Position numbers and translations under genes: made by a program. 64,000 bases of DNA from a virus: the UHGV virus genome UHGV-2025275; one strand, given 5' to 3'. The notes beneath the pieces are model-generated. The model was not told the origin of the DNA and did not search any database. It was given only the letters and a program-made list of their open reading frames with translations. This document shows, in pieces, positions 5,748-63,994 of the stretch (position 1 is its first letter; the number at the start of each line of letters is the position of its first letter).

Positions 5748-6590
5748 TTAATGAAGACGTTTGGATTCCTCCATTTCACGTTCGACATGCTCACGACACG
5801 GCTCATACTCAATGGCGCTGGCGGTAATTTTCCCGGCAGCAATTAGCTTCACGGCAGCAAAGCAAAGTCCTTTAAAGGTGAACTTGGCCTGGTTGCGTCC
5901 GTTTCCGATGACAACGTTTTTGCCATATCCGCGGTCAATGAAGATCTTGAGGAACTGGCGGTTAACAGTGGTGTATTTGCGCTTAACGTACACATCACCC
6001 AGCGAGTCCATCAGCGCACCCAGAACAGCCCCGGACGTTCCGAGAATGCGACCAGCTTCATTCAGCCCATAAAGCTCATCAGCAGTGCCGCAAATGGTGT
6101 CCATGAGAATGGCTTTTGGCCTTGCCACCGACAGCTTGCGCTCAAGATCAGCACGCTGTTCTTCAAGATCGGCTGCCAGTCGAAGTGCTTCTGAAAAGGT
6201 TTCCGGGATGCTGGGGTAGGCACCGTAAAGCGCCCCGCTTGAAACACTCATTTCCAGCTCATGCCAGCGCTCAATGACAGCAGCGCGGTACTTCAACGAG
6301 TAGCCGGTAATGAGAACATCGGTATGCTTTCGGTCGAGCATGTACTCGCCTTCCATTCCCCGGTAATCGATGTTGACAACAATGCCTTCAACAATTGTAA
6401 GCAACTGATTTTTCTCATAACGCAATTTTGCGTTATGGTAATCGTCGGCATACAGCTCATTCAGCACGCTACGGATGTCGCGAAGAATGTCGCTGTGTCG
6501 TTTACCGGTCAGCTTTGAGATTTCTTTTGAGGACATCAATGGTCTGTCCGGGAGCACACCGGGAATCGATAAAGTAGTCATCTCAAACAT
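5748..6590 (-). CDS. phage antirepressor (N-terminal Rha/AntA-like domain, C-terminal KilA-C-like domain)
   Basis: MSSKEISKLTGKRHSDILRDI matches Rha family N-terminus; GGAGAA SD. Confidence 0.7.
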   Translation of the reverse strand: MFEMTTLSIPGVLPDRPLMSSKEISKLTGKRHSDILRDIRSVLNELYADDYHNAKLRYEKNQLLTIVEGIVVNIDYRGMEGEYMLDRKHTDVLITGYSLKYRAAVIERWHELEMSVSSGALYGAYPSIPETFSEALRLAADLEEQRADLERKLSVARPKAILMDTICGTADELYGLNEAGRILGTSGAVLGALMDSLGDVYVKRKYTTVNRQFLKIFIDRGYGKNVVIGNGRNQAKFTFKGLCFAAVKLIAAGKITASAIEYEPCREHVEREMEESKRLH

Positions 6591-6605
6591 ACATTCTCCA
6601 TTCAG

Positions 6606-6635
6606 TGTAAAAAGGGCCGTCAGTGGCCCTTGTTG
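6606..6635 (-). terminator. terminator/attenuator-like hairpin ~25 nt upstream of the antirepressor start codon
   Basis: AGGGCCGTCAGTGGCCCT followed by TTTTT on minus strand, lying between motif-2 copy (6658-6676) and ATG. Confidence 0.45.
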
Positions 6636-6698
6636 TTAACTCTCATTGGTTAATTGGCTAAACAATTTGTTTTAACAGTGCCGAAAATGGATTCGGCA

Positions 6699-6887
6699 TC
6701 AAAAGAACCCGAGAATGCTGCCCACCGGAACAACGAAAATTCCCACGACACGCGCAAGTGTCATTCCGGCATCAAACTGAAGATCACCACCGTTCACGAG
6801 TTTCACTAGATTCATGATCCAGCCACCAAGTAGAAAAATGGCGAGGCCAACAATCATCGCGGTGACTTTCCGGAAGGTCCATTTCAT
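6699..6887 (-). CDS. small two-TM membrane protein (62 aa), holin-like
   Basis: Two hydrophobic helices; ATGA overlap with upstream ORF. Confidence 0.5.
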   Translation of the reverse strand: MKWTFRKVTAMIVGLAIFLLGGWIMNLVKLVNGGDLQFDAGMTLARVVGIFVVPVGSILGFF

Positions 6888-7135
6888 GCAATAGCCTCAG
6901 TCACAGCAGAAGGAAGATCCGGAGTTGCAGGTCGAGTTGGAATCGTGTCCAACAGCATCCCATCCAGAGAGACAGGAGGTCGTTCTGGCAGGGGTGTCGT
7001 CTGCAAGGTTGTGGTGGAAGTAGTTGTGTCCGGTATCAACAGACTCTGACCGGCTGGTACGGCTACCGCTGCCAGGGTTGCTAAAATTACTCCGTAGGCC
7101 ATTGGCTTCAGTCGATTTCGTTGAAAATTTTCCAT
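6884..7135 (-). CDS. small protein with N-terminal TM/signal anchor and Thr/Pro-rich tail (84 aa); alternative frame to 6897..7391
   Basis: ATG preceded by AAGGACAG SD; stop overlaps start of 62-aa membrane protein. Confidence 0.4.
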   Translation of the reverse strand: MENFQRNRLKPMAYGVILATLAAVAVPAGQSLLIPDTTTSTTTLQTTPLPERPPVSLDGMLLDTIPTRPATPDLPSAVTEAIA

Positions 7136-7391
7136 GAGAACTGTCCTTGTGCGTCTGGGATTCACGCAACACACGAGAGGCGACGGAATCACGCACCTTC
7201 TCCATGCCTACTGTCGCACCCAGATTTGCTATGGCGGTAGCTTGCGCATCAATGCGCTTCTCCAGCTCAAACACTCGTTCTTCCAGTTCCGCAAGGCGTG
7301 CAGAAACACGACCGCTAAACAGCTCGGTCAGAACCAGGCGAATTGAACGGGGACGTTTATTGAAAGAAGTGAAAGGCGTTTGACGTGCCAT
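6897..7391 (-). CDS. hypothetical coiled-coil protein (164 aa); C-terminal half low-complexity, overlaps 84-aa ORF in other frame
   Basis: N-terminal 85 aa look protein-like (LAELEERVFELEKRIDAQ); weak SD; C-terminal S/T/G-rich stretch may be non-coding. Confidence 0.35.
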   Translation of the reverse strand: MARQTPFTSFNKRPRSIRLVLTELFSGRVSARLAELEERVFELEKRIDAQATAIANLGATVGMEKVRDSVASRVLRESQTHKDSSHGKFSTKSTEANGLRSNFSNPGSGSRTSRSESVDTGHNYFHHNLADDTPARTTSCLSGWDAVGHDSNSTCNSGSSFCCD

Positions 7392-7521
7392 TTGGATTCC
7401 ATTCAGTGTCAGAAAGAGTTGCGGCTGGCCAAGCCAGCCGCCTTTTGGCGTTCCATCCTGGAACAGTACCTAACCGGTACTTCGTCATCCTGACGAACGG
7501 TAAGATACCTGATTTAAAATG

Positions 7522-7541
7522 ATAGGTAAATACTTACCTAT
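7522..7541. promoter_or_regulatory. motif-1 palindrome ATAGGTAAATACTTACCTAT
   Basis: Near-perfect 20-bp palindrome, one of ~16 dispersed intergenic copies. Confidence 0.5.
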
Positions 7542-7799
7542 CATTTTGTGACAAAAATCCAATATCACGCTTGTGAGGCATATCAGCTGCGGAGTAGACG
7601 GCGATCTTCGACAGGCGGTCACACATTAAGTCGGCTTTGAGCGAGGAGCGGACGTTGACTTAGCCGGATCGCTTAGGGCTTTTAATATTACTGGCGCGGA
7701 TTTCTGGGATACTTTCAAGCTCTTTCCTCAACTAAAACGGAAAATTTCGGCGGACTTTCTACTAGATAGTCCGCCATTATAGTTGCTTTTATATAGTTA

Positions 7800-9482
7800 T
7801 TAATCAACCTTCCAAACGTTGACAGCTTGCTTTGACATCCATTTCTGAAAATCATTGACAGTTTCTAAATTCCACTCTGCATATTCAGTGACTTTTGAAG
7901 CCAGAAAATATCCAGATTTTGTATATTCTTTTTTCTTATCTTCAAATGATGAGCGCTTTAAGTTATCTTTATCCATTAAAATCATGTTTCCAAGCCTATC
8001 TTTTACATCATTAATTCCTTCACCAAAAGAATCGCACCATTCTTTTTCGGGGTGATAAGGACAAATATGTTCTAATGTGGTTTTTTCATAATCACATTGA
8101 TTACCTAAATGCCCCTCAATCTCAGAAAGTAAAAACCGTATTTTTTTTGCCGTTTGCCTACTTGGCATCCTATGAAACTCAAAAGCATTAAAGAATGAAT
8201 TATCATCAGGATACAAGCGTTTAAATTCTTCACTATTTTTTACATGACTAGCTCTTAAAAACTCTCGATTATAAACTTTGTTAGCAATTTGATTGTAAAT
8301 ATTCTCTTGCTCGCTGGGCGATAAGTGGCAAATAACGTTATAACGAATAGATAATACGTATAAATATCTTACGAGTTTAACAAACTCTTCAGGAGAAAAG
8401 TTACCGAAGGCAGCAAGGAATATCGTAAGTGGTTGCTTGATATTGAATAACCTTATTCCATTAAGATAATGCAAAACATTTCTGTATTTCTCATCTTGAT
8501 CTCCCCACCATGCATCATTAGGGTTAATCAATGATGCATAGATAGGTGAGTAGTCAATTAATGATTTTAAATACTGATACGCTTCTTCCGGTTTCGTTAA
8601 TATCTTTCTCATAGAGGAAAACAGGTTGTTCTTAGTGACCATTTTTCTCTGCGAGTTATAGTGATATCTAATGTAATCAGAAACATTGCTTTCGCCAAGT
8701 TGGACGATCATTTCTGACCATTGCTCGTCCAAATCATTGAGTTCATCTTCTCCGATTTGATCATCTTTTGTCACAATTGAGAATAAATAGTTCTTAAGTA
8801 GATCTGGGGTGGAAAGTTGAACACCTCTCGCATTCAAAGTTTCAAAAACTTTATAAGCATTAAGATCATCTTGCACTATTATCTTTGTGAAAACCATGCT
8901 CGAAGAAAAATCTGCAATGAACTGAGCAATATCAGCACCTGTTCTACCAAAATCTTTCTTAGTAAAAAAATCAAAACATTTTCTTATCAATTTATTAGTC
9001 GATGTTATACCTCGAGGATTTTGAGTCTCTAAATGCGATGACATTCTTTGAAAATAACTTTTATTGTTTCTATTTAGTTCTAATTTATTAATCACTTTGA
9101 GCGTAACGAAGTTCTTACTTCCTACAAAGTTTTGAGTTATACCATTGAGTCGCTCAGTGTTTCCCTCTACATCCTCTCCATTATCAATTAAGGTTTTGAT
9201 AGCTTTCATTGCAGCCAGAACTATAATCGATAACGTAACTAAACGTTGTTGCCCATCGATAATTTCATGTTGATACTGTTCTTTTTGCTGAAGGACAATG
9301 TAGCCCATATAATGGAACCCTTCATCATCAAGTGCATTTATATCCCCCCACAAGTCCTCCCATTGCCCCACATCCCATGCGTAGTCTCGCTGGAACCTGG
9401 GTACAATATATTTGTTTGGACCACCAATTAATTCATTAAAATTCTCATTTTTTGGTTCCATCAACATAAATTGCTTTGCCAT
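7800..9482 (-). CDS. DUF262 (ParB-like NTPase/nuclease) + C-terminal DUF1524 (His-Me finger) protein, GmrSD-like type IV restriction-like enzyme
   Basis: PRFQRDYAW … IDGQQRL (DGQQR motif of DUF262); C-terminal LEHICP…H region; gene markedly AT-rich vs neighbours. Confidence 0.65.
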   Translation of the reverse strand: MAKQFMLMEPKNENFNELIGGPNKYIVPRFQRDYAWDVGQWEDLWGDINALDDEGFHYMGYIVLQQKEQYQHEIIDGQQRLVTLSIIVLAAMKAIKTLIDNGEDVEGNTERLNGITQNFVGSKNFVTLKVINKLELNRNNKSYFQRMSSHLETQNPRGITSTNKLIRKCFDFFTKKDFGRTGADIAQFIADFSSSMVFTKIIVQDDLNAYKVFETLNARGVQLSTPDLLKNYLFSIVTKDDQIGEDELNDLDEQWSEMIVQLGESNVSDYIRYHYNSQRKMVTKNNLFSSMRKILTKPEEAYQYLKSLIDYSPIYASLINPNDAWWGDQDEKYRNVLHYLNGIRLFNIKQPLTIFLAAFGNFSPEEFVKLVRYLYVLSIRYNVICHLSPSEQENIYNQIANKVYNREFLRASHVKNSEEFKRLYPDDNSFFNAFEFHRMPSRQTAKKIRFLLSEIEGHLGNQCDYEKTTLEHICPYHPEKEWCDSFGEGINDVKDRLGNMILMDKDNLKRSSFEDKKKEYTKSGYFLASKVTEYAEWNLETVNDFQKWMSKQAVNVWKVD

Positions 9483-48097: not shown

Positions 48098-48508
48098 TCA
48101 CGGATTAGTGAGAGCTTGAAATGCGGCGGCGTATGCAGCGATATCGGCCATGATTTTTGGATCTTTCGCATACTGATGTGCATTGCCCGGGAAGATTGCT
48201 AATAGACTATACACATCTTGGAAATGTGCATGTTGACTGTAAACGAGTGCGCGGTCGCTTGTGCAATTGAATCTGTTGCGGCTGCTGGTTCGTTCTTGCT
48301 TCGTGAACAAGAGATGAACGTGATAAACGCGGGAGGACACGATAGCACCCGGAGCCGTATACGGGCCATCTTTGCCTAATACGGCTGGGCACATGCCTTG
48401 TTTAAGCGACGTGAAATCGTCGAGTAACGTGATCTTTAAGTCAGGCTTTATATCGAAGGTCGGCTGTAAAAATTGGGCGTAACTATCACTGTTCCATGTG
48501 ACCTTCAT
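48098..48508 (-). CDS. hypothetical protein (136 aa), possible YafO-like toxin
   Basis: size and YHVHLL motif vaguely reminiscent of YafO (weak). Confidence 0.45.
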   Translation of the reverse strand: MKVTWNSDSYAQFLQPTFDIKPDLKITLLDDFTSLKQGMCPAVLGKDGPYTAPGAIVSSRVYHVHLLFTKQERTSSRNRFNCTSDRALVYSQHAHFQDVYSLLAIFPGNAHQYAKDPKIMADIAAYAAAFQALTNP

Positions 48509-48517
48509 CGTTCAACC

Positions 48518-49126
48518 TCAATGGAATGAGAAGTTGGCGAAGACGTCCTCATCAATGAGGCCTGTCTGCGATTCGATGACGTCTACGTCGTTAAAACACT
48601 GATTTAAAATCAATAGCAGATCAGAGATAGCCAAACGATACTCAGTTACAGAATCGCTCAGGCGCTTCAAGTATGGATGAGGTTGCTCAGAGTCACGAAT
48701 CAACTTGTTAACGAATCCCTCCAAACCACGAATGGTCAGGTCAACGTTCTTCAGTTCTTCGTAACGGCTTTCACCGAAGCTGCTGCGAATCTTTTCCGCT
48801 TTCCATCCAGAGATGGCATTAGCCAGGCGAACGTGTTTCGCTGTCAATTCTGCGAGTTTGCTTTCGATCTCTGCCAGCTGTGCCGCATCGCTGTTCTCTT
48901 GAACAGGGATACCTGCGGTTCTCACATAGGCTTGTTCTTTGAATCCAGCAAATTTCGCAGAGTGCTTCACCGTGCCACGGAAGCGTCGATAGCCAAGCGG
49001 CTCAATAAAGGCACGCCCAGATTTAGCTTTAGGCTTTGCAGTTGAAAAGCGCGAGGCGTTAGAGGTCACAGTAGCAAGGGCATTGCTAATGACACTCATA
49101 TCTTCCAGGCAATTTTCTAAACGCAT
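48518..49126 (-). CDS. hypothetical coiled-coil protein (202 aa)
   Basis: ATG ORF, operon with 136-aa gene. Confidence 0.5.
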   Translation of the reverse strand: MRLENCLEDMSVISNALATVTSNASRFSTAKPKAKSGRAFIEPLGYRRFRGTVKHSAKFAGFKEQAYVRTAGIPVQENSDAAQLAEIESKLAELTAKHVRLANAISGWKAEKIRSSFGESRYEELKNVDLTIRGLEGFVNKLIRDSEQPHPYLKRLSDSVTEYRLAISDLLLILNQCFNDVDVIESQTGLIDEDVFANFSFH

Positions 49127-50902: not shown

Positions 50903-50955
50903 TATTTGTGGTTCTGGACATCCCCATCTAGGGATGGGAAATCCCATCCAACGGC

Positions 50956-52347
50956 TTATGCTTCATGTTGCTTTTTGAGATCGCTTCTAGCATAGCTCCA
51001 CTCAATAATGTTGTCGGGTCGTTGCTGATCGAAAAGGATTCGGGATTCAATACCATTACCTAAAAAGCTGGTATGCCCATCTACGTAAGAAGCTATCCCT
51101 TGCGAACCAACATGAAGAATATTTTCTAATGGTTGTTTTGTTCTCGCCGTATTGCTAAGGAGAAATAAACCTGGGTACGCTTTGTTAGCACGGTGAAAAA
51201 AAAGTTCATTGTCAAAACACATGACGATGATTATTTGTCCCGACATGAGATCGGAGAGCATTTCAGTTGGCAGATGCAAACTCATAAATGGCCGAGACAA
51301 AGGGTCAAAGAATGAATCGTTTATATTCACAACAGGGCTTTTTATATCGAGGCCATCCATCCATCCATTGAAGGCAACAAAACCCATTTTAGAATCACGG
51401 TACATACCTAAGAACAAACATTCATCAATAGTATCAATTGCCCAATTTTTTCCTCCGCGAATAATCTCCCACATTTTAACTAAACGGTGGGTATAAAACT
51501 CAGATGGATGGTCTATCTCATCGATTTTAACTTTAGATTGATGAAGATTGTCAAAGCCCTCGCCAGTATTAATCGCCTCCAGCACATTCATACCACGAAC
51601 GATTTGCCTTTTTATGCGATTAAATTGCTTAACATCATTTTCAGGCATATTGCTAATGAAGTTTTCTTCAAAGTTCGGACACTCTGAGATAACAGAAAAT
51701 TCGGCAGCTTCATAAAGCTCATTATTCTTTTTGCCTGTTTTAACTTCCACGAGTTGAAAGCCATCCAGTGGATTAAAGGTGACTAAATCCCCCACATGAA
51801 CAAATGTACTCATGTCAGAGACAATCGCTACGGCGTGTTTGTCCTGATTGATAAGATCGGCTGCGACCATAGAATCAATTATGTTATCTTCTGATAGATT
51901 GTCATTGCCTGTATTAATAGGTAAACGCCGCAAACTCGAGTGATCTTCATCAAGTATGCTCCAAATTAGTGAGTCAATACAACGGCGAAGAATAAGAATT
52001 TCAATTTTTTTTAAATTTATTTCATCAATACACTTTTCTTTCTTTTTTTTATCCTTGTTTCGATGATGCTCTTTTTTTTCAACTTCCAATTTTTTTATAT
52101 CTCGCAACCGAAAAATAATCTCAAAAGATATAAGTTTCTGTGCGTCTTTCCAATTTTTGAGACAGATTTCATACTCTTCAAGAAAAATTTCATCATTGGA
52201 AGGTTGTTCTTGAATTGGGTCTTCACCCCTTATCATTTTGGCAAGTGAATGCAGTTGAAATACAAAGTGAGGTGATAAAATTGTCCAAAATTTTCTAAAC
52301 GGTTTGTATTTTTCAATAAAAGTTGATTCGTCAGTATAATTTATCAT
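50956..52347 (-). CDS. AT-rich hypothetical protein (463 aa) with central PD-(D/E)xK-like nuclease motif
   Basis: …VHVGDLVTFNPLDGFQLVEVKTGKK… (D…E-V-K); own TATAAT-like promoter in 89-nt gap; ~30% GC. Confidence 0.6.
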   Translation of the reverse strand: MINYTDESTFIEKYKPFRKFWTILSPHFVFQLHSLAKMIRGEDPIQEQPSNDEIFLEEYEICLKNWKDAQKLISFEIIFRLRDIKKLEVEKKEHHRNKDKKKKEKCIDEINLKKIEILILRRCIDSLIWSILDEDHSSLRRLPINTGNDNLSEDNIIDSMVAADLINQDKHAVAIVSDMSTFVHVGDLVTFNPLDGFQLVEVKTGKKNNELYEAAEFSVISECPNFEENFISNMPENDVKQFNRIKRQIVRGMNVLEAINTGEGFDNLHQSKVKIDEIDHPSEFYTHRLVKMWEIIRGGKNWAIDTIDECLFLGMYRDSKMGFVAFNGWMDGLDIKSPVVNINDSFFDPLSRPFMSLHLPTEMLSDLMSGQIIIVMCFDNELFFHRANKAYPGLFLLSNTARTKQPLENILHVGSQGIASYVDGHTSFLGNGIESRILFDQQRPDNIIEWSYARSDLKKQHEA

Positions 52348-52436
52348 AACTAAACTACCTCTTATCTATTTTTCTTAAGGTACAAACTGCCAGCCTTATT
52401 TTTTTACACAATTATAGTTATAATGTGAAGTCTCAT

Positions 52437-53306
52437 TCAGATATCTTCATACTGCACGTAAGAAATATTTGAGTCTCTGACATCATAATCTTCTAAGCTG
52501 CCTGACTTTTCCTCACCTCTATATAAAGCAACTATCCATCGAGCATTTTCTTGGATGCTTTTATTTATTTCAGCGAAGTATTCACCGTCAACTTCGGCAA
52601 GCGAATGGCCTAAAACAATGACCTCATCCACATTTTTAAGCGACGAGAAAAAAACGCTCTCTTCTTTAATTATGTTTTCGCTGGGCTTGAATGTATTACC
52701 GAAGTATTCGTCTATGCTGTCGTATGCCTCTGCTATTCTTGTATCTTGATCCGGCCCTATATATGGATTTAGTGACTTTTCAACCCTAAAACTGTGACCT
52801 AGTATGAGATCGTCATCGTAAATACAATTGCCGTGAATATGCATGATTTGCGCGTCTGGAACGGCATAGATCTGCTGCAAGGTATTGGTATAATTAAATG
52901 AAAAATAGAGGCTTTCTCTTGATATGGGCGGGATGTATTGCTCAGAATTGCAAGCATCGGTTATGTTAATCCCTTTAACCCAATCAGCGAATTGCTCCTT
53001 CAAGCGAGCTGACAGCATCCGTGTGATTTTATCTACTTCATATTGGTAATCGTGATGATAGGCATCGCTCCAATCATCGGTATTGTACGAAGCCAAAAAC
53101 ATCTCACTGTTTTGAAGGATAAGCTCATAATCAATTGCGCCTAAAGCACTTTCTAACTCGTTCCATTCGTCTCCAGCAGGCAGGTATTCTTCTATCGCGT
53201 CATATAGTTCTTGGTCATGTTTTGCTACATACGACTTAAAGTGCTTGTATCCTGTTGGCAAGCCATGTCGAATATCAAATCCGTTTCCTATTATGTAAAG
53301 CCTCAT
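52437..53306 (-). CDS. AbiH-family (abortive-infection-like) protein
   Basis: N-terminal MRLYIIGNGFDIRHGLPTGY…F, later FNYTNT and HIHG motifs typical of Pfam AbiH; start at internal ATG with AAGGG SD (ORF extends to 53420). Confidence 0.6.
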   Translation of the reverse strand: MRLYIIGNGFDIRHGLPTGYKHFKSYVAKHDQELYDAIEEYLPAGDEWNELESALGAIDYELILQNSEMFLASYNTDDWSDAYHHDYQYEVDKITRMLSARLKEQFADWVKGINITDACNSEQYIPPISRESLYFSFNYTNTLQQIYAVPDAQIMHIHGNCIYDDDLILGHSFRVEKSLNPYIGPDQDTRIAEAYDSIDEYFGNTFKPSENIIKEESVFFSSLKNVDEVIVLGHSLAEVDGEYFAEINKSIQENARWIVALYRGEEKSGSLEDYDVRDSNISYVQYEDI

Positions 53307-53423
53307 CGTTTTTCCCTTAGTCGAATGGTAAAAAGATACTAACCGACTAAAGAAAAACATAAAACCAAAAGTCGCTATCAAATACAACCACGAATTTTCA
53401 ATCTGACTACCAACCTCCATAGA

Positions 53424-53449
53424 CGCAAAAAAGGGGCCGAAGCCCCTTT
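53424..53449 (-). terminator. intrinsic terminator upstream of AbiH cassette
   Basis: AAGGGGCTTCGGCCCCTT + TTTTTT on minus strand. Confidence 0.7.
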
Positions 53450-53601
53450 GGAATTTGCGCTAAAAAGTGTTGATACAATGCTAGGAATCAATGGTTAAGA
53501 ACGTCTGCCGTGTCTATCACAGCGCTGAACGGTCTGGCGACATTTGCGGAGTCTTTCCGTTCGGACGGTGGTGGCGAACTCCAAACCGTTCAGCGCTGTG
53601 T

Positions 53602-53676
53602 TGGCGATGGTGGGTGGACTCGAACCACCGACCAGTTGATTAACAGTCAACCGCTCTACCACTGAGCTACACCATC
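53602..53676 (-). tRNA. tRNA-Asn (anticodon GTT), CCA encoded
   Basis: GATGGTG acceptor/ TAGCTCAGTGGTAGAGC D-arm / anticodon loop CTGTTAA / GGTTCGAGTCC T-arm / CACCATC-G-CCA. Confidence 0.85.
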
Positions 53677-59568: not shown

Positions 59569-60909
59569 TTAAAGAACTTCCATGATCCGCTCGATGAAGC
59601 GCATCTGTTCGAGGTTCTGCTTAACGCGAATACTCACCCCGCCCTTCTGGTTACGAGAACCAGCAAAATAGAGTCGTGCTTCGCCTTTGGCTTCTTCCTC
59701 CTCAGTCTTGTTGATAGTGATGACTAAGTCGGCAATACGGACTTTTTCGATATTGTCCGCGGCGTGCATCATGGTGGCCACTTCGGATGAACCACCTTCA
59801 CGGTTGGTCTGGGATGCCGTGATTCCTGCAACGTTGTGCTTATCGTAGAGAGCACGCAAATCGGTGTAGATAGAGCGGATGTTCGCCCGGTCGTCACGGA
59901 GGTCGTAACTGGCTCGCATCAAGTCCGCATAGTCGACCACCACCATATCCGGGATCATACCATTCGCTTTCATGCTATTGAGCATACGATCCAAATCTGC
60001 AGGCGACATGCTTCCTGATGGGCGCTCAACCACCCACAGATTCCCTACCCCTTTCGTCGCGCCAAGCTCTGCGAGTTTCCGGTGAACGTCGTCACGCTGC
60101 TCTACCAGCTTTGACATCTCCGTTTCAGACAGCCGTGCATCGAAGCGATCGGAGAGAATCGAGGTATGCACTTCGAGAGAAAGATACAAAACGTTGTAGC
60201 CGGCCAGCGTTGCGTTAATGGAGAACTCCCCCATCGCTGTCGATTTACCTGATTTCGCAAACCCCATGAAGAGCACCATCTCACGTTTCGCCCAACCTTT
60301 TTGATAGAGCATACGATCCAGCAGCGGAAGACCGGTGGTGATGCTGTTCGGCACGTAATCATCAGAGGCTTCATATTCACGGGCCTTGTAACGTTCCGCT
60401 GCAGAGGCGTAATAGTCATAAATGCCCGTCGCTTCGTTAGAACCGATCTGCTGCACTTTGGCCATGATGGCCATCGCCCCCTGGAAGTCGCCCTTCTCCT
60501 TCATCTCGGCCGCTTTAATCAACGCATCGTCGAACGCTACACTTTTAGCGAACGTTGCAACTTGGTCGACCATGTAAGCCGTATCAGAGAGTTTTTCCGA
60601 GAGCACCCGCTTAAATGCCGCCACAACGTCCGGGAACATCTCTTCTCTGATCGTCTTATCGCGTTTAGCACGCTTCAACATATCGAGGATGGCAGCCGAT
60701 GAAGGCGCGCTCTTATACATTCTGAAATAGCCCGATACCATGTTCACCAGTATGGCGTTCGCCGCATTGGAGAATTGGTTGGGGGCAACCAGATCGCCGG
60801 CACGAGTCAGAAACTCATGATCGCGGCAAAAATACGCCGCCAGACGATTCTGGAAGTCGTCGTCGAACTCTTCAGACAACCCTCGTCCCGTGTGGCAAAG
60901 TTCGGTCAT
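59569..60909 (-). CDS. DnaB-family replicative helicase
   Basis: Walker A GFAKSGKST, RecA-like C-terminal domain, N-terminal helical domain. Confidence 0.8.
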   Translation of the reverse strand: MTELCHTGRGLSEEFDDDFQNRLAAYFCRDHEFLTRAGDLVAPNQFSNAANAILVNMVSGYFRMYKSAPSSAAILDMLKRAKRDKTIREEMFPDVVAAFKRVLSEKLSDTAYMVDQVATFAKSVAFDDALIKAAEMKEKGDFQGAMAIMAKVQQIGSNEATGIYDYYASAAERYKAREYEASDDYVPNSITTGLPLLDRMLYQKGWAKREMVLFMGFAKSGKSTAMGEFSINATLAGYNVLYLSLEVHTSILSDRFDARLSETEMSKLVEQRDDVHRKLAELGATKGVGNLWVVERPSGSMSPADLDRMLNSMKANGMIPDMVVVDYADLMRASYDLRDDRANIRSIYTDLRALYDKHNVAGITASQTNREGGSSEVATMMHAADNIEKVRIADLVITINKTEEEEAKGEARLYFAGSRNQKGGVSIRVKQNLEQMRFIERIMEVL

Positions 60910-60927
60910 GTGTTTGTTATCCTTTGG

Positions 60928-60950
60928 TGCTTAAACAAGTTGTTTTCTAA
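60928..60950. promoter_or_regulatory. motif-2 palindrome upstream of helicase gene
   Basis: gcttaaacaagttgttttctaat. Confidence 0.5.
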
Positions 60951-60973
60951 TCGTAAAAATATGGAGCAGGCGA

Positions 60974-61699
60974 TCAACACAGTCGCCGTGCTTCTTCCAG
61001 TTCTTCCGGGTAATGGGCATAGATAACGCGCTCAGGCACCAGCTCCATCAACCAGACAGCAGAGAAGATGGTGCGGATACGCTTATCACGGGTTATGTGT
61101 TTCAAACGCTCCAGAACCCATTCAAAGTAACGTTCCTGAATTGGGTCATGCTGCATGTCTCCTAAGTGCTTAAAACTCACTACAGAGTCATCCAGACGCG
61201 TTCCCGCACGACTGGCGAGTTTGTTTTCGAAGATCTCAATCAGTTCTGGCTGCCAGAGGTGCTGAGGGCGAGGTAATTTGTCCCAGAGCCGGCGCGCAGC
61301 TGCAGAGAGAACGGTTGATATAAAATAGTCATAAGAGCAGCAATATCTATCTGCAAACTGGCGAGCTTTCCAAAGGGATGTTTTGTTCACCGCCGCGAGC
61401 TCTTGGTAAGGCAAGCGTTTCAGGCCAGTACTAAATGGCGCCGTCTCGAAATGCTCGCGGCCATGGGATAGCATGATCTGTGAGTATGAACGCTTATAGG
61501 CTTCTGTGAACAGGCAGGTTGCCATCAGCGGGTGCATGTCGCGATAGTCAAACCACTTTGTATCAAAGAGCTCAGCCTCCCCCTGGCATCGTGAAAGACC
61601 GATGTTTTCCGCAACCCACTTGTCCATGGCAGCTGTGTTCCACTCCATCATGAAGTCGTACTGGCCGTTGTTTATGGTGTCAAAAAAGATCTGGCTCAT
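60974..61699 (-). CDS. hypothetical protein (241 aa)
   Basis: motif-1 copy 10 nt upstream. Confidence 0.55.
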   Translation of the reverse strand: MSQIFFDTINNGQYDFMMEWNTAAMDKWVAENIGLSRCQGEAELFDTKWFDYRDMHPLMATCLFTEAYKRSYSQIMLSHGREHFETAPFSTGLKRLPYQELAAVNKTSLWKARQFADRYCCSYDYFISTVLSAAARRLWDKLPRPQHLWQPELIEIFENKLASRAGTRLDDSVVSFKHLGDMQHDPIQERYFEWVLERLKHITRDKRIRTIFSAVWLMELVPERVIYAHYPEELEEARRLC

Positions 61700-61708
61700 G
61701 CCCTCACC

Positions 61709-61731
61709 GATAGGTAACTACTTACTTATTG
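61709..61731. promoter_or_regulatory. motif-1 palindrome GATAGGTAACTACTTACTTATTG
   Basis: intergenic. Confidence 0.5.
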
Positions 61732-61871
61732 ATTGACAAATCATAGCGACTGGGAAGCTGTTTGGAAAGAGGAATTAGAAGGGTGTGCCCTGGTGTGTTC
61801 TTGTATCAAAGACCTGCTTCTGTATATTATTATACTTCCAGTATTAAAATTACTACAGAAGCAGGCAAATA

Positions 61872-63635
61872 TTAATCAATATCTATCTTTAACAATCTTT
61901 CAACTCTTATTTTATTCAATTGCGAAGTTCTTGCCACTCTTTTAATTGCAGCTATTGCTTTATCAGTTATTTGAGTCTGGCCAGGTATAGGATCAACGTG
62001 GTCGTCAAATTTAAGAAGGCCATGCCTAATCTTATCTAAAACATCTTCGTTACAGGTAACAATCCAGTTGTAATAATCATCTTCACTGTATGCATTTAAA
62101 GCATCAATATGTAATGAAGAGTAATTATTACTGCTCGATAACCGGCCAAGCAACTCATCTAAATCATATTCGGCCTTTCTTATTTGATTTAATTTATTAT
62201 TAATCAATTCATATAAGCCTTTATGCTCAATGGTGCTGTTCATCAATAAATTATATTCTTTATTAAGTGAACCTCTACTAATAAGATCATCAACATATTG
62301 AGTAATATAACTATCGCAGTTAACGCCTAACTCCTCTAGAATAATAAAAATCGAGGAAACCTTGCTAAGAGGTATTCTCGACCTATACTCCTCTATTGCT
62401 CCTTTCAATGCATCAACAAAATCATCTTGGTTTGTATTGAAAGAATCTCTAAAAACACTCCATATTTCATCTAACTTTCTATTTATCGCTATATCTTCAT
62501 AATCTTTATTTTTAGCCTTCACCGCACTTTCAAAACTGAAGTTGGAAGGCAAATATCCATGCTTAAAGTAATAATCAATCCCGTAATCAAATAAATTATC
62601 AGAATTTGTAAATGACATATCTAACTGCTCTATGAATTTTTCAGTGGCTGACATTTCGTCATCATTAGTATGATAACTATCAGCCATTGCTCTGGGTTGT
62701 ATTTTTTTGAAAAATTCATCATAGGGCAACTCATCAGCCCATGAGTAAAATACATATGCAAAAAGAACAACTCTGAAAGTAAAATCTTTCCGCACTTCCC
62801 TGCACGCTGTTGTGAATTCAGACTCATATGCGTAAAGAGTCTTTTTTATTTTATTCAATATTCTAATATTTTTTAAATTTAAAGCATCTGCCGCACTTTT
62901 TATAAATTCAAAATTCGGATCGTTATGTGGAAATATTTTTCTGACATTATCAATGACGTCAGGTTTATACATAATGTCACGATCGACAATTTTTTCTCGA
63001 TATTCTATAAATTGTCTTTCTTCATCATTCTTAGTTAAGTTATTTTCATTGTAAATCAATATTATCTTACATGCTTTTGATCTTGCAAGGTCATCAACTA
63101 ACCCCATGAAGTCTTTTATCTCTAAAGAGCTACCTTTTCTCTCAAGATCGTCAAAACAAATTAAATATTTACTTACATAATTATAACCATCAAAAATTGT
63201 AAATTCGGAGGATTTAAGGCCAAACCCGCTTATCCCTATGCTAAAGTTATTAAAGATCGTTTTACTTACTTTGTTATACCTTACGCACTTATATACTCCC
63301 GAGAAAAACCTCTCCATCATTTGTTGTTTTTTCTCTAGTAAATCCTCTCTATAAAGTTTTTGATTAAGCGGTATAGTGGAAGGGAATAGTTTTTTCTTAA
63401 TTTCTTCAATAGAATTAAGACCAAATAGAGAAACATATGAATATGCAATCTGATCAATTTCTCTTTTATTTCTTTTACCTTCGTAGTAACGGTTCCAAAA
63501 ATGTGTTTTCCCTACTCCCCATTCACCTTTAATTACTGCAACCCTGTCATCAGAAGCCAAAAATTCATCTAAAATTTTTGTTATGGACATAATTAATGCT
63601 CCTAAGAAAAAGGCGCCTAACGCGCCTTCAATCAA
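61872..63635 (-). CDS. KAP-family P-loop NTPase (587 aa), AT-rich
   Basis: Walker A KGEWGVGKTHFW (GxWGxGKT hallmark of KAP NTPases); ~28% GC vs ~50% backbone. Confidence 0.6.
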   Translation of the reverse strand: MIEGALGAFFLGALIMSITKILDEFLASDDRVAVIKGEWGVGKTHFWNRYYEGKRNKREIDQIAYSYVSLFGLNSIEEIKKKLFPSTIPLNQKLYREDLLEKKQQMMERFFSGVYKCVRYNKVSKTIFNNFSIGISGFGLKSSEFTIFDGYNYVSKYLICFDDLERKGSSLEIKDFMGLVDDLARSKACKIILIYNENNLTKNDEERQFIEYREKIVDRDIMYKPDVIDNVRKIFPHNDPNFEFIKSAADALNLKNIRILNKIKKTLYAYESEFTTACREVRKDFTFRVVLFAYVFYSWADELPYDEFFKKIQPRAMADSYHTNDDEMSATEKFIEQLDMSFTNSDNLFDYGIDYYFKHGYLPSNFSFESAVKAKNKDYEDIAINRKLDEIWSVFRDSFNTNQDDFVDALKGAIEEYRSRIPLSKVSSIFIILEELGVNCDSYITQYVDDLISRGSLNKEYNLLMNSTIEHKGLYELINNKLNQIRKAEYDLDELLGRLSSSNNYSSLHIDALNAYSEDDYYNWIVTCNEDVLDKIRHGLLKFDDHVDPIPGQTQITDKAIAAIKRVARTSQLNKIRVERLLKIDID

Positions 63636-63994
63636 CTCTTTTTCATCAGCTCACGCTTTATTTCGTCAGTACGCATCGTCACATCAGCAGCGGTGATCGC
63701 CTCGTTCATCTTTACGATGTCCTCAATTTCCTGCGGGGACTTCTCTGCCAGATGGAAAATGGCTGCTCGTATCACATCAGAACGGGTGAACTTCTCGAAG
63801 CGAGGGATGAACTTCATCATCTCCAGTAATTCGAAATACTCGTCTTCAAGCGACATCGTGCGGCTTTTGATTTTCTCTTTACCACGTGTTGGACGGCCTT
63901 GTGGACGGACAGGCTGGCGCATCGGTGTGCTGCTTTTAGGCGCAGCAGCTTCCGCAGCCGGACGTTTTGCCAGATCACCCATTTTCATGGACAT
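63632..63994 (-). CDS. hypothetical basic/acidic protein (120 aa), possible DNA-binding
   Basis: ATG ORF whose stop overlaps KAP start. Confidence 0.45.
   Translation of the reverse strand: MSMKMGDLAKRPAAEAAAPKSSTPMRQPVRPQGRPTRGKEKIKSRTMSLEDEYFELLEMMKFIPRFEKFTRSDVIRAAIFHLAEKSPQEIEDIVKMNEAITAADVTMRTDEIKRELMKKS

Follow-up and report, generated by a model that had tools for sequence, protein, structure and literature searches.

An AbiH gene joined to a member of a large uncharacterized protein family in the cargo slot of an SSU5-like phage-plasmid

AbiH is an abortive-infection protein that acts alone in Vibrio, Streptococcus thermophilus, and Lactococcus lactis (bioRxiv 10.1101/2024.06.14.598830; PMC12322248; PMC13064643). 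In Vibrio it has been validated as a system of one gene that gives 5.7 logs of protection and is countered by two small phage inhibitors (bioRxiv 10.1101/2024.06.14.598830), and it has likewise been validated in S. thermophilus (PMC12322248). The protein is predicted to be Sir2/sirtuin-like (PMC13064643), and AbiH has already been noted in SSU5-group phage-plasmids via DefenseFinder screening (bioRxiv 10.1101/2025.09.12.675607). Here we describe a locus of the virus genome UHGV-2025275, analyzed as a stretch of 64,000 nucleotides (the window), in which an AbiH gene (gene 1) is followed by a gene for a 463-amino-acid protein (gene 2). AbiH itself is known and ordinary, and the interest of the locus rests on gene 2, a member of a large family without annotation. 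We favor, with a probability of about 0.5, the view that the two genes make up a composite mini defence island, in which a self-sufficient AbiH was joined to an autonomous, uncharacterized candidate defence gene and the two are mechanistically independent. An earlier model-made reading of the letters alone (hereafter, the sequence-only reading) had flagged the pair as perhaps undescribed; indeed, we found no account of an AbiH-gene 2 pairing in the literature searched.

As that reading had it, the locus consists of two adjacent minus-strand open reading frames (ORFs), 52437-53420 and 50956-52347, between a tRNA-Asn gene and phoH (Table 1). The AbiH hallmarks that it had noticed (IIGNGFD, FNYTNT, and HIHG) are present in the translation of gene 1 as MRLYIIGNGFD, FNYTNT, and MHIHGN, and the identity was confirmed by a hidden Markov model match to Pfam PF14253 (E value of 2.2e-69; 234.9 bits for a cut-off of 30.9; profile positions 1 to 258 of 260), together with matches to PADLOC AbiH (1.6e-28) and phrog_19951. 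The gene starts at Met39 of the 327-amino-acid ORF (53306), behind a Shine-Dalgarno sequence, AAGGGA, at 53318-53313, which gives a protein of 289 residues, as in RefSeq WP_004110166.1. A start at 53420 was rejected, since the upstream part of the ORF is unconserved and homology among cassette copies begins at 53343/44. Compared with abiH of L. lactis (Prevots 1996), listed as single-gene AbiH in DefenseFinder and PADLOC, gene 1 shares the full-length profile and the GNGFD, FNYTNT, and HIHG motifs, and it has in common with known AbiH genes a mobile-element location and stand-alone close homologues. The difference lies in what comes next: no second conserved gene was found in the descriptions of known AbiH, whereas here and in E. 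coli and Klebsiella prophages one follows.

Both genes also occur without each other. AbiH genes 94 to 95% identical to that of the window are solo in Dickeya and in Morganellaceae, where they lie in three different islands; a 76% identical homologue is solo in Serratia, and tblastn detected no gene 2 at any of these loci. There, DNA homology to the window starts at 53342/44 and stops at 52410, inside the spacer that separates the two genes in the window; the cassette thus results from the fusion of two modules, one holding AbiH and the other gene 2. Downstream of the solo AbiH of Dickeya zeae (CM001980), 95% identical to that of the window, a 354-amino-acid ORF follows after 227 bp (L101:5098-6162). 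It matched nothing in Pfam or PADLOC, shows no similarity to gene 2 or Abi_2, and may be another swapped-in companion.

At close range, the two genes travel together: a mobile unit of 2.4 kb holding both is present in at least three backbones that are unrelated to one another. E. coli lambdoid prophages carry it at 92 to 95% identity, between replication genes and hokD, and it is also found in Klebsiella-type loci otherwise unrelated to the backbones of the phage-plasmid and of the E. coli prophages. Of the roughly 32 fetched loci with a gene 2 copy of at least 88% identity, about 27 have AbiH some 89 bp upstream, and the others are cut by a contig end or have a truncated gene 2; the synonymous divergence of the two genes is equal (for example, dS of 0.18 versus 0.19). 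The sequence-only reading had made its case depend on conserved co-occurrence in other genomes; we find such co-occurrence in the clade with at least 88% identity, to which it is confined, and not at the level of the family. The ratio of nonsynonymous to synonymous substitution rates (dN/dS) is about 0.1 to 0.4 for AbiH and gene 2, with values of 0.2 to 0.38 for gene 2; gene 2 is under purifying selection, a sign of functional constraint. Across 5,426 complete E. coli genomes, 65 have an intact AbiH and 62 an intact gene 2, and about 50 of the 115 genomes bearing AbiH retain just a remnant of 190 to 525 bp, with no gene 2. Some intact E. coli cassettes carry IS1 insertions, and the N-terminus of gene 2 is disrupted in one copy (L004), so that the cassette often decays in this species. 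Separately, a 583-bp contig in a Streptomyces plumbiresistens assembly (L014) holds a fragment 91% identical to enterobacterial gene 2, most likely assembly contamination rather than true distribution.

The product of gene 2 had been left without a global assignment by the sequence-only reading, and the searches agree: Pfam, NCBIfam, PHROGs, and PADLOC contain nothing that matches it, and none of the 5027 models of PADLOC-DB 2.0 hits it at an E value of up to 1. When 100 family members were scanned singly, Pfam gave no match and PADLOC gave isolated hits above 1e-3 only, and the family profile found no match among PDB sequences. By exhaustive HMMER searches, the family comprises 491 clusters at 50% identity (E value of up to 1e-3; 269 at up to 1e-10), with nearly all members about 440 to 500 residues long and aligned end to end; a scan of GTDB genomes with the family alignment returned 3 loci only. 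Among 127 sequences, reaching down to about 20% identity, the only invariant residues are D178, D187, E201, K203, G205, R244, and Q248. The GDLVTF...QLVEVKTGK motif, proposed earlier as a restriction-endonuclease-like core, is present, with D187 followed after 13 residues by E201-V-K203-T-G205.

In the full-length AlphaFold2 model (predicted local distance difference test, 95.8; predicted template modeling score, 0.94), a long helical hairpin (residues 52 to 131) comes ahead of a small beta unit, and a 200-residue alpha/beta domain forms the C-terminus. Within the beta unit, D187 is predicted to sit before one strand and E201-x-K203 to end the next, followed by helices bearing R244 and Q248; the order given by DSSP is helix 153-166, strands 173-176, 188-192, and 196-200, and helix 206-221, which would suit the alpha-beta-beta-beta-alpha-beta core of PD-(D/E)xK nucleases, in which the D opens strand 2 and ExK lies on strand 3. 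Foldseek searches of the PDB with this model returned nothing below an E value of 0.26, so the predicted fold is one with no detectable solved relative, and hhalign of gene 2 with single Mrr_cat and PDDEXK_4 sequences gave no match either. Because both comparisons were negative, the nuclease assignment is made at the level of the motif: the center of gene 2 resembles PD-(D/E)xK in residues and in predicted placement. The earlier proposal of such a motif is thus upheld by the invariance of D187, E201, and K203, and not by any detectable profile or structure similarity to known members. RecB/Cas4/YraN-type PD-(D/E)xK nucleases have 'G-D ... h-h-E-h-K-T-G' signatures. Gene 2 shares with them the layout of a D followed by ExK-T-G, its predicted placement on a strand hairpin and then a helix, and an invariant R/Q pair on a later helix. 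It differs by its far larger size, with a 130-residue helical hairpin ahead of the core and the 200-residue domain behind it. The family may have been named very recently, for example, as Toga (PMC13586616) or among the systems of Brenes & Laub 2025; Toga is a single-protein system with SMC-like Foldseek hits (PMC13586616).

Across the wider family, the partner type of gene 2 is labile, and most of its relatives are cargo genes without a partner in P2-, P4-, and Mu-like elements. They occur alone in tail modules of P2-like prophages, directly after P4-type integrases, next to a tape-measure gene, in a Mu-like prophage, and on plasmids. Others keep company that suggests a role by association, the neighbors being AbiH, PD-T4-5/Abi_2, PDC-S19, HEC-08, AbiK, Gabija-like genes, and Mrr_cat. 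An Abi_2 protein matching PD-T4-5 lies 16 to 43 bp upstream of relatives in Pantoea/Erwinia and in a second clade; a protein combining DUF3644 with a restriction endonuclease-like domain (PADLOC candidate PDC-S19) lies 17 to 18 bp upstream of a Dickeya relative; HEC-08, like PDC-S19 of the DUF3644/HEPN kind, lies 124 bp downstream of a relative on a Rahnella plasmid; and Gabija-like genes adjoin one in an Aeromonas island. On a Bacillus cereus megaplasmid (NZ_CP129006), in an island that also holds an ABC-three-component system, an AbiK reverse transcriptase directly precedes a gene 2 homologue (L077:4983-6046) that is annotated as two separate ORFs, of 189 and 158 amino acids, and may be a pseudogene. 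An ORF of 275 amino acids without a Pfam or PADLOC match, 20 bp upstream of a distant homologue in a Dyadobacter metagenome-assembled genome (L015:1321-2148), is an unclassified candidate partner outside Proteobacteria. A partner gene was found by tblastn at L013 and L062, and the small upstream "ORFs" of L038, L039, L045, and L046 are by composition likely noncoding artefacts. One clade (56 to 82% mutual identity) mixes Abi_2-linked, DUF3644-linked, and solo members, and within it the DUF3644-linked copy of Dickeya and a solo copy of Aeromonas share 81% identity (L008 and L009). DUF3644 and Abi_2 count among the HEPN RNases (PMC3710099), and single-gene defence has been validated for PD-T4-5 and HEC-08 (PMC9519451; bioRxiv 10.1101/2024.01.29.577857). 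The hotspots of P2 and P4 are well known to harbor antiviral genes (PMC9122126; PMC13586616), with six of eight randomly picked unknown P4 hotspot loci proving protective (PMC13586616).

We propose that a mini island was dropped into the cargo hotspot of an SSU5-like phage-plasmid. Its first module is AbiH, a self-sufficient abortive-infection gene whose product is predicted to be a Sir2-like, NAD+-consuming effector, and its second is gene 2, which would be an autonomous gene directed against phages or mobile genetic elements and itself carried by mobile elements. For gene 2, we infer a defence role and a nuclease activity, the likeliest chemistry being metal-dependent cleavage of nucleic acid at the D187/E201/K203 center, aided by D178, R244, and Q248; the N-terminal helical hairpin lying over the D...ExK center may mediate oligomerization or autoinhibition. 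The two genes are on the same strand, 89 bp apart, with no terminator called between them, and are probably co-transcribed. The modules would have been joined once, inside the spacer, and would then have spread together, giving their carrier two layers of protection against competing phages, each independent of the other. The sensor-effector pair suggested by the sequence-only reading is not supported: AbiH is a validated one-gene system, itself predicted to be a Sir2-like effector (PMC13064643; bioRxiv 10.1101/2024.06.14.598830), near-identical AbiH genes occur without gene 2, and gene 2 relatives are mostly solo or beside other Abi genes. Several observations weigh against two independent defence modules. 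Intact AbiH and intact gene 2 are never separated within E. coli, the tight same-orientation spacing of 16 to 20 bp to Abi_2 and DUF3644 partners could mean functional coupling, neither gene was detected by tblastn in 50,697 INPHARED phage records, and the hhalign comparison with Mrr_cat and PDDEXK_4 gave no match.

Such coupling is the core of the main alternative, which we consider unlikely: members of the gene 2 family would serve as a conserved partner, be it sensor, guard, or second effector, for swappable toxic Abi effectors (Sir2-like AbiH, HEPN Abi_2/DUF3644, and the reverse transcriptase AbiK), and AbiH and gene 2 would act together. It would explain why five different Abi-type neighbors are directly adjacent and all on the strand of the gene 2 homologue, why the gaps to Abi_2 and DUF3644 are so short, why no terminator is called behind AbiH, and why the Pantoea/Erwinia clade is uniformly paired with Abi_2; it also fits the equal dS of the two genes, the preservation of the pair in three or more backbones, and the 1:1 ratio of intact copies in E. 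coli. The partners themselves speak against it, as AbiH, PD-T4-5, HEC-08, and AbiK are validated single-gene systems and PDC-S19 is a PADLOC candidate (PMC9519451; bioRxiv 10.1101/2024.01.29.577857; 10.1101/2024.06.14.598830). Furthermore, the majority of sampled gene 2 lineages are solo, the partner changes between copies of gene 2 that are 81% identical, near-identical AbiH occurs alone, its module ending at a clean junction, and the HEPN gene of Rahnella is downstream rather than upstream. Effector swapping in Lamassu (LmuA variants), CBASS, and Thoeris likewise sets one conserved component beside interchangeable Sir2-like, HEPN, or nuclease genes, but the parts of those systems fail alone and the conserved part is never solo, whereas in the present case each part is also found by itself and the partners have been validated as acting singly.

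Gene 2 might also serve no defence at all. We judge it rather improbable that it is other cargo of mobile genetic elements (an anti- or counter-defence factor, a DNA-processing enzyme for maintenance of the element, or an addiction-type gene) whose adjacency to Abi genes reflects shared hotspots. Gene 2 has no homology to any known defence family, phage hotspots also hold anti-defence and other moron genes, one homologue (L017) sits beside housekeeping genes, and decay is frequent in E. coli, with about 50 genomes keeping an AbiH remnant only. Nevertheless, the gene recurs in classical P2- and P4-like defence hotspots, where six of eight tested unknown genes were defensive (PMC13586616), known defence genes are neighbors in roughly one-quarter to one-third of the distinct sampled contexts (an informal count), and gene 2 is absent from the searched phage genomes, including virulent ones, where anti-defence genes are common.

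A more speculative variant, to which we give little credence, keeps the defence role and makes the gene 2 family a companion module for one-gene Abi effectors, a nuclease-type guard or backup that fires when a phage disables or evades the primary effector and that is also capable of acting solo in P2/P4 hotspots. It would be recruited beside Sir2-like, HEPN, or reverse transcriptase Abi genes and could be triggered, for example, by the small anti-AbiH proteins Tlaloc or Enki; if true, it would represent a new class of second-layer immunity, widespread and of novel structure. Finally, that gene 2 is an antitoxin- or immunity-type regulator silencing a toxic Abi effector until infection is very improbable, for although it lies downstream of, co-oriented with, and probably co-transcribed with toxic-domain proteins, and PD-T4-5 is classed as toxin-antitoxin-like (PMC9519451), it is large, has an invariant catalytic-looking motif, and is mostly solo with no toxin nearby, and the toxins are stable and functional without it at solo-AbiH loci and in the literature.

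The cassette is imported cargo, and its setting is in keeping with a defence role. The window is an SSU5-like phage-plasmid, 99.8% identical across the region to the Klebsiella oxytoca IR5392 plasmid NZ_CP064109; with SSU5 itself, the match is limited to the tRNA-Asn flank. Carriage by a phage-plasmid, as had been suggested from the letters alone, is thus borne out. Backbone homology with a cassette-less sister plasmid, Enterobacter roggenkampii pK666_111k (L003), ends at 50903 and restarts at 53425, which delimits the variable slot and shows that the neighboring terminator just closes the tRNA-Asn transcript. This terminator, a hairpin AAAGGGGC-TTCG-GCCCCTTTTTT with a T-run (53449-53424), is genuine, as the sequence-only reading held; its supposed role as an insulating part of the cassette was rejected, since sister plasmids without the cassette keep it. 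In pK666_111k, the slot holds another two-gene cargo (L003:2950-3741 and L003:3782-4336), encoding a 263-residue protein with an N-terminal endonuclease-effector-like region (PDC-M68A, 9.6e-22; weaker matches to SduA and CBASS effectors) and a 184-residue protein to which no identity was assigned, and in other relatives it is occupied by an ISSen4 insertion. The phoH/tRNA-Asn slot thus behaves like a defence hotspot.

Table 1. Features of the AbiH-gene 2 locus and of its slot in the backbone (window coordinates)
Feature	Coordinates	Strand	Basis
Variable cargo slot of the SSU5-like backbone, phoH to tRNA-Asn terminator	50904..53424	.	Homology to cassette-less plasmid L003
Mobile two-gene unit, 92-95% identical to E. 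coli lambdoid prophages/Klebsiella-type loci	50923..53344	-	blastn edges 50923/34 and 53343/44
Hairpin GGATGGG-ATTT-CCCATCC directly after gene 2 stop, cassette edge	50932..50949	-	Sequence; without T-run
Gene 2, 463 amino acids, large uncharacterized family	50956..52347	-	ORF; Shine-Dalgarno sequence AAGAGG 52363-52358
AT-rich spacer, 89 bp, with module junction 52410|52409 and TATAAT 52416-52411	52348..52436	-	End of solo-AbiH homology
AbiH gene, 289 amino acids, start at Met39 of 327-amino-acid ORF	52437..53306	-	Pfam PF14253, PADLOC AbiH, phrog_19951
Backbone intrinsic terminator 3' of tRNA-Asn, outside cassette	53424..53449	-	GGGGC-TTCG-GCCCC then T6; kept in cassette-less plasmids
tRNA-Asn (GTT), backbone landmark	53602..53676	-	ARAGORN

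Two further claims about the cassette stand in part. It had been described as having about 30% G+C in a setting of about 50%; it is AT-rich relative to its flanks, but the flagged interval has 37.6% G+C (gene 2, 36.4%; AbiH, 40.0%) in a window of 49.1%, and values near 30% are confined to the spacer (28%) and the 5' third of gene 2 (30%). Likewise, the TATAAT hexamer credited to a promoter of gene 2 exists, but no promoter or terminator was called in the spacer, the promoter scan finding no acceptable -35 element, and at loci where AbiH is solo the hexamer sits in the 3' flank of the AbiH module; an independent promoter of gene 2 was therefore rejected as unsupported. At the other end of gene 2, the hairpin after the stop codon has a perfect 7-bp stem and coincides with one of the two end-points of the cassette (50934, the other being 50923); it might act as a weak terminator or mark a spot prone to recombination.

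The window holds two other low-G+C islets, which likewise speak for defence cargo. One, at about 6400 to 8600, contains a gene (7800-9482, minus strand) for a 560-amino-acid GmrSD-type protein (PADLOC HEC-06, 2e-215; Pfam GmrSD_N/C) and is a second defence cargo islet of the same phage-plasmid; the 164-amino-acid ORF beside this gene (6897-7391) gave no matches. Another, at about 60500 to 63900 and adjoining a DnaB-like helicase, encodes a 587-amino-acid KAP-family P-loop NTPase (61872-63635, minus strand; PADLOC candidate PDC-S49, 3e-24) and is a probable third defence islet; the flanking ORFs, 60974-61699 (241 amino acids) and 63632-63994 (120 amino acids), gave no matches. In a near-identical RefSeq record, a YafO-family type II toxin is annotated at window positions of about 48098 to 49126 (minus strand), with a 202-amino-acid hypothetical protein (48518-49126) just downstream; together they could form a toxin-antitoxin pair close to the integrase.

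We consider gene 2 a worthwhile lead, since its family is large, novel in fold, and associated with defence hotspots. At 50% identity the family numbers about 500 clusters; none of the libraries searched annotates it, and it combines a very confident predicted fold with a strictly conserved, catalytic-looking center. Its members occupy the classical defence hotspots of phages, satellites, plasmids, and phage-plasmids, and the family repeatedly adjoins five different single-gene Abi systems. If gene 2 is a defence gene, the bacterial immune repertoire would gain a widespread family, as would the cargo with which the clinically common SSU5-type phage-plasmids and the prophages of E. coli and Klebsiella exclude rival phages; cooperation with Abi effectors, should it occur, would reveal how suicide systems of one gene get backup. 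A close parallel to its way of life is the single-gene cargo of P2/P4 hotspots (PD-T4-5, HEC-06/08, Toga, and Reve). Gene 2 is unrelated in sequence to any PADLOC 2.0 model. It shares with these genes their niche, in integrase-adjacent and tail-module hotspots, plasmids, and prophages, and, like them, it is AT-rich and rapidly swapped and has the kind of weak nuclease-like motif that such cargo genes often carry.

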